DNA of 62,884 nt, the filler included, from Porpidia crustulata (Eukaryota), in the NCBI GenBank assembly GCA_964255105.1. It is 7 parts of 7 records of this genome, joined end to end, with 100 filler letters (N's around TTAATTAATTAA, not from the genome) between each part and the next. Parts side by side here need not be neighbours in the genome. Positions count along the whole stretch, not along the records: positions 53,998 to 62,884 come from CAXUWE010001034.1; 6 more parts are not named here. The stretch is one strand, 5' to 3'. The position numbers were made by a program, and so were the translations under genes. Below are positions 54,349 through 60,070 of this stretch, one piece after another (positions within the stretch are counted from its first letter, which is position 1; every line of letters begins with the position of its first letter). The notes under the pieces were generated by a model. The model did not search any database, was not told the origin of the DNA, and saw nothing but the letters and a program-made list of their open reading frames with translations.

Positions 54349-56016
54349 TTATCCTTCAGTGAGGCTCAACTCTTGCCCTGGAGCCGTAGAAAAGACTCCT
54401 GCTTGATCCACTTTACCACCCTCAGGTCCTCTTACGTTCTTGTCTTCAGCCGGTGCCTTAAATGACTCGAAATACTGGAAAGGATCTGGTCAGTATGTTC
54501 GCTCCAGACTCGGGATTGCATAGTAGGACAAACCCTTTTTCTGAAATTATTGAGATCATTGGCCGTGGTACCCTTGACATCCTCCTTACTCTGCCTGAAA
54601 AGACGGCTTTTGTCTATTGCATCGTCAGGTAACCTTTGATAGGTGAGAAGTCTTCTCGACCCTAATACGCTGCCTAATCAATAAATGGTCCTCCACAGGC
54701 GAGGATTGGATCTTACATTTATTGAAAGCTTGCACACATACACTGATCACCTCCAAACAAGGATGCATGGGAACGGCTAGCTCAATCTGTTCATCATTGG
54801 CAGTTGGCATCCAGAATGAAAGTCTTCCGCCGTCCACAAGCGATATTGCTGCAAATTCAAGAATGTCGTCTAGCATGGCTACAAAACTGTAGGGGCGTTT
54901 GGGAGGGAGGTAGCCGTCTCGGCTGTTCTGATCAGTGGGATAGCTCGTGGGAAAGGCGGCTTTTACTTACAGATGTGCAGCTTCGCCATCGATATGGAGG
55001 ACTTCCTTGCCACCACCGTCTTTAGTTCCAAGTACCCGTAGGCCTTCTCGCACGCCATAGGGTGGGTCGCAGATGATACCATCAAGTAGTTTAACCATTC
55101 GCAGCGGGCTGTGCGTTAGATCGCATATGAAGCCATCCAGATATCTATCTAGCAATCCATATTGCCGAAAATTTGTGATAATATTAACACCTTCTTTGCC
55201 TCTCAGCATCCGCGCATCAATGTCTGAGCCCATCGATAAAGCGCCAAAATGCGAGCAAGCGATCGGAAAGCTTCCTGTTCCTACAAACGGGTCATAGAAA
55301 AGCTTTCCGGGTGCGGCGAGTGTGATATTCGCCGCAAGTAGAGCAAGCTCGGAGTCCATAGACGTAGTGCTCAAGTACTTCCTGCTCTTGAGACTATAAT
55401 CGTACGCTGCATCCCTTTGGCCATCCGCAATCCACCTTCCAAAATGCACCTGCCGCGGCGGGACCTTGGCCCCCCACTCCGAATCCTCAAAGACACGAAA
55501 GACCTGTTCAGAATTATGCATTTGAATAATGCCATTGAATCCAAGATAACGAAAAGAGTCGATGATCTCTTTCCGTTCGCTCATGCTCCGCTTTCCCTGG
55601 AAAGTGTCAAAATCGACCCGGAACGAGGATGAGCTGTAGTGGGCCCACTGCGAAGCCATGCGTCGATGAACATCTGCGTGGAGCTCTTCGTAGTTCGAGC
55701 CGCTGCCCCATAGCTCGTATATTCCTTTACTTAAGATACTCCGAGCTATGAGGGTCCTGGCAGACGCTTCGTCACGGAGTCGGACGATGCAGTAGGGTGA
55801 CTGGCAAGAAGGGGTCAGATACTCAACGCTTCGTCGATGAATGCATGGGGAAAGGTCCGCAATCGAGTGGGAAAAGTTCTATCTACAACTGAGAAAACCT
55901 ACATACTCGCTGTAAACTAGGAATTCGACGTTGATTTCGGCAAGAGTAGCCAACGACTGTATCTCAGGTCTTCGAAACGTTTCATGCGTCTGCACATATC
56001 GAATAAGGTATTCCAT
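54349..56016 (-). CDS. TRM11: tRNA (guanine-10-N2)-methyltransferase catalytic subunit; exons 56016-55903, 55800-54971, 54922-54717, 54661-54534, 54474-54349
   Basis: MEYLIRYVQTHETFRRPEI, RKYLSTTSMDSELAL, YDPFVGTGS, GSDID, ICDPPYGVREG, GRLSFWMP and WSRRLLTY. Confidence 0.93.
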
Positions 56017-56284: not shown

Positions 56285-57315
56285 TCAAGGGAGTCCTCTC
56301 CCAGAATTGACCGCATTAGCAAGCTGACTAGTGTCGGGCCGGTTTTCTAAGCGCCTGGATTAGCATTTTTCAGACAACAAAGCGGTTACAACTGATGAGC
56401 AACTTACCAGCATAACGCTCATAGCTATCTAGGTACAGGTCGTCCGTACTGGTGGTAGCTTTGACGCCTTCGTTTCTTTCAATGGCATCCACCCAGCTCG
56501 CCCACCGACTCCCATTTTCTGGCTGCGGCCATCCGCGATAAGGAGTCAGAACCCTGGACATTCGAATAATCCATGGTGCAAACTGAATATCCACAAAAGA
56601 TATGTCGGTACCCAAGAAAAAAGGACCTTGCGGGTGTGCAGCATCTACAAGTTTCGCAATCTCGGCCCGCAGTTCAGTAGCAAGATTGATTTGCTGGTCT
56701 ACTTCCTGTGCCTGCAAGTATCGATAAAAAGCAGGAGTAATATTGCGATTGACCTGCAAATCATGTAAGTCCTTGCGAAGGGAAATCTGAGTGATGATAC
56801 ATACGTGGTCAGACCAAAGACGAGAATGGGCTCGGCCTTTGGGATCTCCAGGGAGCAGGGGAGTACCAATGTTCAAGTCCTCAAGCTTTCCATTCAATTA
56901 GCCGACTTCAATCCATGACGGCGAATTCATGCTCACATATTCCATTAGAACGGTACTCTCGTAGCATCCCCAATCACCATGTCGAAGTGCTGGGACGAGA
57001 CCACGCGGATTGACTTCCAGTAGTGAATCTGGTTTCTTGTATGGATCAACCTCAACGTACTGATAGTTAAGGCCCTTGACTTCCATGGAGATCCACACTC
57101 GTTGCACGAACGGGCTAGATAAGTAATATTATTAGCTCTGACCTTTGACCATCGACATTTGATGACCCTCAGGATGGGACCATGTGATCCTACCAAAAGC
57201 ATCCTCCGTAAAGTTTCAACTCATGCTCCTTCGAATGCTTTTTGACCGTGTTGAGAGCCGCCCCGGTAGCCTTCTTATGGTATGATTTCTGCTCCGTTTT
57301 TGATTTGTCAGCCAT
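56285..57315 (-). CDS. Glutathione transferase, Cys-active-site (omega-like); exons 57315-57194, 57114-56937, 56885-56805, 56753-56408, 56346-56285
   Basis: LKLYGGCFC|PFVQRVWI, EVNPRGLVPAL, YESTVLMEY and GPFFLGTDISFVDIQFAPW. Confidence 0.92.
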
Positions 57316-57556
57316 GATCCAGCGATACTTAAAATTAAGGGGTGAATTTTGCGATTCACGAGTCGATGATGTATAGGTTATTACTTGAGCGCATAGAGAA
57401 GACTCGAATCATAAGAAAAATCTAAGCCGTTAAGAATGAAGTTCTTCGTAAATGTTACCGCACTCTATCGCAGCGATGACGCGCGATGTGCATGCGTGCA
57501 TGCGTAGTCGGTTGCTGGTTGAAAACTCGCTTGCATTGACAACGGCCGCTAAAGAA

Positions 57557-58709
57557 TTACATGCTCACCTGTGTTTTCTTCTTGACTTTCTCCTCTTTGA
57601 GGAAATGTCGATAGATACTGTTCTTCTTTACTCTATCACTTTCTTCAAGGCTATGCTTATGTGGTCCTGCTGCACCATCGCCTTTGCCATTGCCACCATT
57701 ACCGTTTACTCGTTGAATCGTATAATATCGATTTCCATCACTGCCTGGCTTGTTCAATCGTAATATACCATCATTGGCTAGTTCCGTAGGCCCGAGTACG
57801 TCAAAAGGTCGCTGTAGCTGCGGAGTTGACATCAAGCTGCCGGGCTGTCCAGGCGCAAAAAAATTGTTGCTGTCAGACTCATCTATCCCCGAATTGCCGA
57901 AGTCAGAGCCCATCACTGCCCTAGCCCCAGGAAAGTATTCTGTAATCTTAATCTTGACATCGCAAAGATCTCGCTCTCTGGCTTGACGTTTCCGTTTCTT
58001 CTTACTAGGATCTTCCGACTTTGGTGTTCCAGGTGGGCGTCCTTTCAGCCTACAGTCCCAGTAATGCGACACAAACGGTTTGCGCTTGTATTTTTGCGTC
58101 GAACGGTGGGAATATATGTTGTCGACATGCGGGAAGTACGTCAGAAATCTACAATAAAGCTGTTAACCACCAGGAACAATGAACCGGAACATTTAGAGTT
58201 TTAATGACTTACTCATCTTCGGTCAATGTGATAATATCATCAACATCGAAGAGTCGTCTTCTCCATTCTTCAAGGTTCGGCGGGTTCGGGATCACCTTCA
58301 GGTTGTTGAAATGTCCTTCGGTGGTTCCTCCATCCTGTACTGCAACAGGTCGAAGATCAATTTCGCCTTGCAAACGTCCCAAGGCTTCATGATGAGTCTG
58401 GGGTTGGCTAGGTACTTGGGGATGTGGTGTGAGCACACCAAATTGGCCCGGTCGATTGAATGCATTGTTGAGCTGGTCAACTCGAGGTACTCTTGACTGT
58501 AGGTCTTCGAATCGAGGTTGGGGGGGCCCTTGGTCGTAAGGATTGCGGTGCAGCTGCTGAACATGACTCTGAGTATCAAGCTGGGTATGAAATTGAAAAG
58601 AATCAAGCTCGAGCTGGGAGACTAAGGCTTGGTGGCCCGAATGTGGCTGTGTATGAAAGATGGCATCGTTAAGGTGCTGTGGATGCGTATGAAAGCTGTT
58701 GACTTCCAT
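57557..58709 (-). CDS. Conserved-looking hypothetical protein with a putative WRKY/GCM1 (FAR1/Aft1)-like Zn-binding DNA-binding domain; exons 58709-58213, 58148-57557; may splice at 57569 into the GST
   Basis: EEWRRRLFDVD...YFPHVDNIYSHRST...HYWDCRLKGR-(basic KKKRKR)-LCDVKIKITEY...YYTIQRV...HKHSLEESDRVKKNS. His/Gln-rich N-terminus. Fold assignment is inference. Confidence 0.8.
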
Positions 58710-59350
58710 CGCAACTTCCCCGGGTGCGATCGTCAACTAATCACGTCCATCGACAAGAACTGAGAAAAAGCGGCGAGACGTTAAAGAAGCGAGGTGCAAA
58801 GGGTATGTTTTAGCGGCTTGGCATTCTGTTCTGTATCGGCTATGATTGCTATAGAGATTAGAGTACACTTTTATCAGAGTCGTAACTCTCTCCCACATGT
58901 ATTGCAAAACAGGGGGATTGCAAGGTACGTTCGAAGACAATATGTCGAGCATTATCCAAACAACACTGTTGCAGTCCATCTCGTACTCATGCTTCAGACT
59001 GATTTGCCAAAATGAGAAAGAACAGCTTCAACGTTATTTCTATTCCCATGTCGCACTTTGACTAGAGCAAGACACCAGAGTTCAGTATCTACATACGCCG
59101 TCAGTCATACCTTGTATGATAAGCCAACAGTGCGCCCGATTTTAAGAGTATATTGCGATTTCCCTGATTGTTTAATCGCAGCGTTGTATTCGTCATGTAG
59201 TTAAGAAGTTTGTGAAGTCCAAATGCCATCATTCAGCCTACGATAGCGCAATAGGAGATTTGCGTCTCTTTTTCTTCTTGCTGTCTTTTGGACACCAATT
59301 TCATTATCCAATTTATCTTTCCAGTATAGTTTCCCTTGTTGAGTAGAGCA

Positions 59351-60070
59351 ATGAACAGAGAAAACCCAAAGCTGCCTCTGTCCTTTTCACACGCTTCTAC
59401 AAATCAAAGTTCCGCCAGGCCTTCGCTAGGCCTATCAGAGGTTTCCCTACCAAATCAGCATGGAGAGTTGCTCGTCGTTTCCCCATATAGTTCGCAAAAT
59501 CATCTTCTCAAACTTCAATCAATTGGGAAACCACAGCAGCTTCTGGCCAAGGCGCTATCAGTAATGGAACCACTACGAGAGGACTATGCCACTGCTCCGT
59601 ATGTCGATGCTTTCAATTGGAATGTGGTCGCCAACGCGCTCAAGTCTTTAGTCGACCTTGAGACCTATGCTTGGAAGCAGCAGTCTTTCTACATTGTTGT
59701 ATTCAGGTCTCAATTGTCTCCGACGACTGACGGCTCGCATCTTGGGGCGCTCGATATGAGGTCTCATGCTGAAGCTATGGAGAGTGGGGGCCTCCTGAAG
59801 TACTGGTTTGGGAATCCAGATGTTAATGGAAGGAACTTAGCCACCTGTGAGTTTTTTGGACAGACCCATTTAACTCAGCTTAAGCAGCTGACTAGCTTAG
59901 GTATATGGCGAGATTATGAAGACGCTAAGCGTGGTAGCCTTGGCCATAGCCATAAGGAAGCCATAAGAGCGACAATTCATTTATACAGCGAGTGGAAGCT
60001 GGAGCGACTACTACTCACGATCGGCGACAACGTTACGAATTGGGCCATTCGTTGGTGGGACCAGAAGTAA
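59351..60070 (+). CDS. UPF0643-like conserved fungal protein; exons 59351-59846, 59901-60070
   Basis: LVVSPY..HLL, DYATAPY..AFNW, FYIVVFRS, HAEAMESGGLLKYWFG.PD.NGRNLATC|IWR. A 54-nt in-frame GTGAGT..TAG intron is present. Confidence 0.75.
   Translation: MNRENPKLPLSFSHASTNQSSARPSLGLSEVSLPNQHGELLVVSPYSSQNHLLKLQSIGKPQQLLAKALSVMEPLREDYATAPYVDAFNWNVVANALKSLVDLETYAWKQQSFYIVVFRSQLSPTTDGSHLGALDMRSHAEAMESGGLLKYWFGNPDVNGRNLATCEFFGQTHLTQLKQLTSLGIWRDYEDAKRGSLGHSHKEAIRATIHLYSEWKLERLLLTIGDNVTNWAIRWWDQK

Follow-up and report, generated by a model that had tools for sequence, protein, structure and literature searches.

Two open reading frames (ORFs) follow each other on the minus strand at positions 56285–58709 of a 62,884-nt stretch of Porpidia crustulata DNA (the window, seven parts of assembly GCA_964255105.1 joined end to end), and the question is whether they are two neighbouring genes or one gene with more than one protein product. 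The upstream frame begins at the ATG at 58709, contains one 64-nt intron (58212–58149) and closes at a TAA (57559–57557) after ...KKKTQVSM, giving 362 aa. The downstream frame, a glutathione transferase (GST) of 262 aa, begins at the ATG at 57315–57313, contains introns of 79, 51, 51 and 61 nt, and stops at 56287–56285. A donor (CAG/GTGAGC, where the slash marks the junction here and below) begins at 57568, and a CAG acceptor lies at 57291–57289, both in phase 0. Excision of the 280-nt GT..AG intron between them (57568–57289, the fusion intron) leaves an open 612-aa frame, ...KKTQ/KSYHKKATG...GGCFCPF; when the intron is retained, the frame closes after VSM at the TAA. The sequence GCTGAC at 57312–57307, 19 nt before the acceptor, fits a branch site. 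The frame ends, splice elements, phases and 612-aa frame had been given in an earlier reading of this DNA (the original prediction), and every coordinate proved exact on re-reading. Its description of AT-rich sequence upstream of the GST start was overstated, since the GC content is 0.44 in the fusion intron and 0.47–0.49 in the neighbouring exons.

Our answer is that the locus is probably one gene, conserved in Pezizomycotina, with two protein outputs, a fused protein of 612 aa and a free GST of 262 aa. The long messenger RNA (mRNA) would start upstream of 58709, lose six introns including the 280-nt one, and encode a protein composed of a disordered His/Gln-rich N-terminus, a conserved domain of ~220 residues (the N-domain), a helix and a Cys-type (Omega-like) GST. 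The short mRNA would start inside the 280-nt intron, use the ATG at 57315 and encode the free GST, so that the fusion acceptor would lie nine codons inside the older first coding exon of the GST.

Fused gene models are widespread among the relatives. A protein search with exon 2, which carries the core of the N-domain, among longer proteins gave 673 matches, and the architecture was judged on the best 120. The majority of these 120 are 580–750 aa long with GST Pfam domains, and the fused models come from Lecanoromycetes, Leotiomycetes, Eurotiomycetes (Aspergillus, Blastomyces and dermatophytes), Dothideomycetes, Xylona and Geoglossum, together with one Sordariomycete, spanning at least five classes of Pezizomycotina. 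The nearest exon 2 matches, both from Peltigerales, are those of Pseudocyphellaria aurata (78%) and Lobaria immixta (76%). The 612-aa window model can be aligned over its full length with 19 fused models. In nine of them the junction is exactly ..KK.Q/K[TS]YHKKA without extra residues, and the remaining ones contain a few added residues, from differently placed acceptors or from read-through; in the Aspergillus fumigatus A1163 model, the linker is read straight through. Conservation along the fused protein is high at residues ~138–240 and 300–360 and over the entire GST.

Five automatically annotated orthologues illustrate the arrangement: MMC22_009109 of Lobaria immixta (605 aa), MMC07_009439 of Pseudocyphellaria aurata (646 aa), SS1G_06623 of Sclerotinia sclerotiorum (621 aa), K441DRAFT_655222 of Cenococcum geophilum (637 aa) and EDP50541 of A. 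fumigatus A1163 (706 aa). They have the same order of parts and the same ..KK.Q/K[TS]YHKKA junction as the window, with exon 2 identities of 61–78%; the models differ in that some read through and some put the acceptor elsewhere. None is characterized, and they are named 'hypothetical protein', 'glutathione transferase' or 'GST N-terminal domain-containing protein'. For SS1G_06623, a table row in the one paper found shows no significant expression change. The original prediction had left open whether the fusion was already annotated in other fungi. It is, in many of them, as hypothetical or 'GST N-terminal domain-containing' proteins, and since the gene model occurs many times in public databases, the fusion itself is not new. 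In Blastomyces dermatitidis ATCC 26199, there are two models, P0143 (682 aa) and P0147 (542 aa, a 'variant'); the latter keeps the N-domain and the junction but continues from the second GST exon into an intron and terminates early, which suggests additional isoform variety inside the GST part.

At the DNA level, we compared the spacers between the N-domain and the GST. One scan of metagenome contigs gave 80 loci (L001–L080), and 39 distinct spacers with both anchor motifs were collected, the window included; those of 150 nt or more are termed long. A donor was scored as a phase-0 GT in a nine-codon range after the KK.. stretch, matching GTRAGT at five or more of six positions. Each of the 56 loci with at least 1000 nt of flank 3' of the N-domain has the GST downstream in the same orientation. 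The acceptor AG stands immediately before the K[ST]YH codon in 38 of the 39 distinct spacers, and the donor match is found in 37. Adjacency, phase, donor and acceptor are thus conserved beyond what chance would give. Past the donor, the unspliced tail always begins with Val (GTN) and then varies in sequence and in length, from 3 to >100 residues, as would be seen in an intron but not in a protein tail. The lengths of the spacers fall into all three classes modulo 3 (0, 1 and 2), and read-through could therefore not preserve the frame. In some loci merely ~60–105 nt separate the N-domain from the GST, too short for a gene boundary (spacers of 85–104 nt in L033, L038, L039, L050 and L061; gaps of ~60–95 nt in other loci).

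L072 has no intron at the junction, and a continuous genomic ORF crosses it (L072:3380–3560). L058, a contig of 2148 bp with short flanks, contains an intronless fused ORF of 620 aa and is the only one of the 80 loci with all six junctions spliced; we read it as an mRNA-derived contig. Taken together, the conserved sites, the adjacency, the tail pattern, the short spacers, L072, L058 and the A1163 model rule out that the fusion is an artefact of annotation or rests on a GT..AG pair that arose by chance. The predicted in-frame fusion by splicing is therefore borne out by conservation and by intronless mRNA-like contigs in relatives, and we infer the same splicing in P. crustulata.

The second output requires a start codon inside the fusion intron. 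An in-frame ATG lies 4–12 codons before the acceptor in 30 of the 34 distinct long spacers, and the ATGs at most 45 nt upstream of the acceptor are distributed 33/0/6 by frame. Among these 30 spacers, A occupies position −3 in 27 and D is the third residue in 25, while the second residue is always S, A or T. Four Dothideomycete-like loci were compared over the 12 codons MTDTNQGGDP[QS]K, which show 7/4/37 differences at codon positions 1/2/3, with 30 synonymous and 7 non-synonymous codon differences, a coding signature within the intron of the long form; there is no conserved AG just upstream of the internal ATG in these loci. In the group of the window (window, L001, L003 and L004), there are 23/162 differences in the nine codons and 70/162 just upstream, showing that conservation starts at the ATG.

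Intronless contigs from relatives are consistent with this start. Searches with the GST as query gave many fully spliced proteins of 255–285 aa beginning with the internal-start codons, on contigs of 0.9–1.5 kb from sources that call ORFs without splicing. One cluster groups eight such contigs (877–1091 bp) with a fused 703-aa Curvularia model, and another groups three (987–1095 bp) with a fused 709-aa Venturia model. The best identity of P0159 to the scanned loci is only 58–68%, and it is tied to the fused Venturia model via its 90% cluster. In Cenococcum geophilum, the fused 637-aa form (P0106; KKKTQ/KTYHKK) is present on one 2405-bp contig and the free 266-aa form (MTDANQNNQSEK/KTYHKK) on nine contigs of up to 1407 bp and one of 1492 bp; the genomic locus L020, 97–99% identical, measures ~2680 nt from start to stop. 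The fused and free intronless contigs of Cenococcum point to both mRNAs in at least one species with this architecture. Thus, the free GST from an intronic ATG, as originally predicted, finds support in the conserved in-frame ATG, the coding pattern and the intronless short contigs of relatives.

These data also bear on the other ways of reading the locus. The two frames could belong to independent neighbour genes, the database fusions being prediction artefacts and the GT..AG pair a product of chance, as might be thought from the annotation of two genes, numbered consecutively by locus tag, in Ciborinia, Sarea, Pycnora, Loekoesia and Pleopsidium, and from the stop that the upstream frame has 9 nt into the intron. 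Against this stand the donor and acceptor, conserved at the identical codon boundary in 37–38 of 39 spacers, the unconserved tail past the donor, the intronless fused contigs L058 and P0106, the continuous ORF of L072 and the spacers of ~60–105 nt. We therefore find two independent genes scarcely credible; judged from the sequences, this reading is already contradicted in relatives. The original prediction had also counted a third product, an upstream-only protein of ~362 aa; as a functional, regulated product, it would be made through intron retention or early polyadenylation. The closure of the frame after VSM and the upstream-only models of 377–460 aa in many databases would fit such a product, but these models are gene predictions with the GST as neighbour, and no transcript of such a form was seen. 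Because the read-through tails vary as described, they fit a non-coding intron and not a selected C-terminus, and the 362-aa product, which we regard as quite improbable, is the part of the prediction that fell away.

It is also conceivable that the fused protein alone is made here, the ATG and the nine codons being conserved as the context of the branch site and 3' splice site, or as part of a fused isoform with an upstream acceptor. The position of GCTGAC, the annotated fused models that contain these codons (for example in Pseudocyphellaria, Xylona and A. fumigatus) and the lineages without the ATG agree with this idea. However, a branch site requires neither an ATG, nor A at −3, nor the correct frame, in which 33 of the ATGs lie; synonymous differences predominate; spliced free-GST contigs of ~1 kb begin with exactly these codons; and an AG just 5' of the ATG is not conserved in the four Dothideomycete-like loci. 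Production of the fused protein alone therefore seems unlikely to us. Some observations do weigh against one gene with two outputs. A search for RNA runs of this organism gave one run (X1), which is DNA; its two contigs follow the genomic order and contain no joints. The complementary DNA origin of the short contigs is deduced from their intronless ORFs and size and not from run records; they do not map 5' ends and may be partial assemblies of intron-retaining transcripts. GCTGAC doubles as a branch-site consensus, which may account for part of the conservation beside the ATG. Finally, the free form is not universal, the in-frame ATG being missing in four of 34 long and four of five short spacers.

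The missing ATG in some long and most short spacers points to fusion-only lineages. In those with a short intron that lacks this start codon, and in L072, the fused protein is apparently the sole possible product, the free form having been lost or never having been there. In L029 and L030, the last 25 nt of the spacer read ATGGCTGAT..., a start-like sequence one base out of the GST frame, which could reflect either a misassembly or an internal start that lost its function recently.

Within the fusion intron, a 61-nt block (57473–57533, minus strand) is nearly identical in the window, L001, L003 and L004, whereas the rest of the intron diverges. It consists of a tandem GCATGCAC repeat followed by CGCGTCATCGC, and contains CGTCAT at 57481–57476. 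Of 26 distinct long spacers, 17 carry CGTCAT in the sense orientation, compared with a maximum of 12 in 50 shuffles; it is usually single, about one-third to one-half of the way into the spacer, and one other spacer has an antisense copy only. The block or its CGTCAT may be a regulatory element, perhaps of an internal promoter, and is offered as a lead only. We rejected a structured RNA or small nucleolar RNA here, since the block has no Rfam match at E ≤ 1 and its folding z-score of +0.51 indicates no unusual fold.

By its sequence, the downstream protein is a Cys-type (Omega-like) GST. Pfam recognizes the thioredoxin-like N-terminal GST domain in the exon at 56937–57113 (GST_N_3, E = 4e-17; GST_N_2, E = 8.4e-16) and the helical C-terminal GST domain in the exon at 56409–56753 (GST_C_2, E = 1.2e-8). 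A CPF-type motif lies at the start of helix 1, where the window reads GGCFCPFVQRVW, and 58 free GSTs show no variation at F43, C44, P45 and F46. The cysteine of this motif is the catalytic residue in Omega, Lambda and DHAR GSTs and, by analogy, would be catalytic here. In the comparison with PDB sequences, the closest solved chain is 6srb_A ('Uncharacterized protein', 261 aa; E = 1.6e-66), followed by TDR1 (4ags) and human GSTO1 (1eem), whose chains score E ~1.5e-21 to 4e-21. The window GST shares the N-terminal extension YH..A.G with 6srb_A, and since 6srb_A is a free protein with this extension, the free form is probably ancestral. The fusion would then have arisen as the upstream gene began splicing into the first coding exon of the GST, a few codons past its start. 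Known Omega-class and Cys-type GSTs share the thioredoxin-like N-domain, the helical C-domain and the CPF cysteine motif with the window protein; they stand alone, whereas this GST would in addition form the C-terminal portion of the 612-aa protein. The excerpts of two GST surveys (PMC4401685 and PMC10449922) make no mention of a long form.

The N-domain is more difficult to assign. Pfam searches of the window and 72 relatives at E ≤ 10 left it unmatched, the only recurrent families being those of the GST, plus scattered weak matches; both upstream exons are without a Pfam family at E ≤ 1, and a profile of the N-domain only gave no match to PDB sequences at E ≤ 10. A profile search of 1.84 billion representatives gave 761 representative clusters at E ≤ 0.001, and the 150 listed include no distant relatives, all being orthologues or fragments. 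A structure model of exon 2 only reached a predicted local distance difference test (pLDDT) score of 58.7, and fold searches with it gave generic β-sheet matches alone. It was replaced by a model with the full domain borders, built from a Lobaria fragment and 76 relatives, with a pLDDT of 76.3 and a predicted template modelling (pTM) score of 0.70. The elements of this model are ordered helix, strand, helix, three strands, helix, strand and two helices, and strands 50–57, 63–70, 103–109 and 175–182 form a four-stranded antiparallel core with pLDDT >90 in these blocks. C70 is the last residue of strand 63–70 and C100 lies three residues before strand 103–109; both are invariant in 77 sequences. 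Between the two cysteines is a 29-residue Lys/Arg-rich insert containing KKKRKR (RLKGRPPGTPKSEDPSKKKRKRQARERDL). H197 and H199, an invariant HxH, lie 15–17 residues past strand 175–182, after a Gly-rich loop of low confidence.

This geometry weakly resembles that of the WRKY–GCM1 superfamily. In the excerpts of Babu et al. (2006; PMC1702500), the fold is defined by a four-stranded core, the insert-containing family (Rcs1/Aft1, Aft2, Candida Rbf1 and plant FAR1) has a positively charged insert of 20–70 residues between the cysteines, a range that includes the length found here, and a WRKY–GCM1 domain is fused to an isochorismatase domain in filamentous fungi. The four-stranded core of the model and the two cysteines with a basic insert are in common with the insert-containing family, an invariant HxH follows further on, and the superfamily offers a precedent for fusion to an enzyme as a possible sensor. 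The best 50 of 48161 chains in the structure search include WRKY33 (Z = 3.8, 75 residues aligned), AtWRKY1 (Z = 3.8, 60/61 residues, root-mean-square deviation 2.5), AFT2 bound to DNA (Z = 3.4), AtWRKY4, FLYWCH (Z = 3.2), GCM (Z = 3.0) and another WRKY. Several points count against membership. None of the structure Z scores is above 3.9, short of the level taken as specific, and unrelated four-stranded sheets score likewise; Foldseek against the PDB gave no match at E ≤ 0.001 with either model, WRKY domains appearing at E = 0.6–1.4; and Pfam WRKY, FAR1, AFT, GCM and FLYWCH gave no match at E ≤ 10. The HxH is displaced to ~15 residues past strand 4 and is not at the strand end, strand 4 (RYYTIQRV) lacks the Trp of the insert-containing family, and the N-domain has an extra N-terminal helix–strand–helix and a C-terminal helix. 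Weighing both sides, we favour a WRKY–GCM1-like zinc finger by slightly better than even chance on the basis of the model. The WRKY–GCM1 and DNA-binding label of the original prediction is plausible though weak, with WRKY, AFT2, FLYWCH and GCM chains among the best 50, but no Pfam or PDB sequence match and Z scores of only 3.0–3.8; DNA binding is deduced from the WRKY–GCM1-type fold assignment and the basic insert.

A different lead comes from language-model features, by which the nearest named clusters are ALS2CR8/CARF (PF15299), with scores of 0.91 and 0.90, then 0.86, 0.83 and 0.82, a range that we count as a lead only. These are animal proteins named for a calcium-responsive transcription factor, and neither the window nor the 72 relatives match the PF15299 profile at E ≤ 10. 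GCM and FAR1 clusters are weaker leads of the same kind.

The features of the locus are collected in Table 1. Met1 of the fused gene is conserved across alignments A1–A4, and the spliced-junction motif of intron 1 was matched in just two of the 80 related loci (L058 and L070).

Table 1. Features of the fused gene and the nested GST, in window positions
Feature	Position	Strand	Remarks
Exon 1 of fused gene: start codon, poorly conserved His/Gln-rich N-terminus, first conserved part of N-domain (from ~58298)	58213..58709	-	
Intron 1, 64 nt	58149..58212	-	GTAAGT..TAG, phase 2
Exon 2: N-domain core and C-terminal helix ending KKKTQ	57569..58148	-	
Candidate zinc ligands C198 (58054-58052), C228 (57964-57962), H329 (57661-57659), H331 (57655-57653)	exon 2	-	Invariant in alignment
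29-residue basic insert with KKKRKR, between C198 and C228	exon 2	-	
Fusion intron, 280 nt	57289..57568	-	CAG/GTGAGC..CAG/AAA, phase 0
Nine codons MADKSKTEQ exclusive to free GST	57289..57315	-	Internal ATG 57315-57313, A at -3
First GST exon common to both products: KSYHKKATG...GGCF, then first 2 bases of CPF Cys codon	57194..57288	-	
GST exon with thioredoxin-like N-domain and CPF active-site motif	56937..57114	-	GST_N_3, E = 4e-17
GST exon 3	56805..56885	-	
GST exon 4, helical C-domain	56408..56753	-	GST_C_2, E = 1.2e-8
Last GST exon	56285..56346	-	Stop TGA 56287-56285

On either side of the locus lie two further frames. The downstream neighbour gene on the minus strand (54967–55878, probably continuing to ~56030) contains an RMKL-like methyltransferase domain (UPF0020, E = 1.5e-8) and presumably resembles a Trm11-type tRNA guanine methyltransferase. 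Upstream, on the opposite strand, there is a 246-aa open frame (59330–60070) with no Pfam match at E ≤ 0.001.

The literature that we searched, which leaves out most subscription journals, contains no description of the fusion family, the N-domain or the nested start, and the word 'glutathione' is absent from the WRKY–GCM1 survey (PMC1702500). The family is spread over the filamentous ascomycetes, where lichen fungi have it as well as pathogens of plants (Sclerotinia, Venturia and Diplocarpon) and of humans (A. fumigatus and Blastomyces); despite this breadth, it has no described function, and its N-domain is in no domain library. The nested start has a practical consequence, in that annotations disagree on one or two genes and expression studies that count reads by 'gene' lump two distinct proteins together. 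Clean genetics is possible with this architecture: changing the internal ATG would lose the free enzyme only, and changing the donor would lose the fusion only.

If the N-domain binds DNA, the fused protein would act as a transcription factor that carries its own glutathione-dependent enzyme, linking thiol chemistry directly to gene control. Following the structure model, the N-domain would be a zinc-binding, nuclear, nucleic-acid-binding module of the WRKY–GCM1 type, its nuclear location being predicted from the KKKRKR insert, and the GST would be attached to it as a catalyst or a sensor. GSTs usually form dimers, and the long and short isoforms could therefore pair through their GST parts. 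In its fullest form, this proposal describes an unrecognized transcription regulator of Pezizomycotina, in which a divergent WRKY–GCM1-type finger would be joined to a cysteine-GST sensing glutathione or thiols, and a promoter in the intron would supply the free GST that pairs with and tunes the long form, making the locus a redox switch; we consider this full proposal doubtful. The locus would combine known kinds of parts, namely a Cys-GST, a putative WRKY–GCM1-like finger joined to an enzyme, and a pair of long and short isoforms, the short one from an internal start. Regulators with a GST or glutaredoxin fold are known as well: yeast Ure2 controls Gln3, bacterial SspA binds RNA polymerase, and yeast Grx3/4 act on Aft1/2. 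SspA chains are among the PDB sequence matches of the window GST. In all three systems, a glutathione-binding fold is coupled to transcription control, as it may be here; however, Ure2, SspA and Grx3/4 are separate proteins, whereas the coupling in the fused protein would, by this analogy, be covalent.

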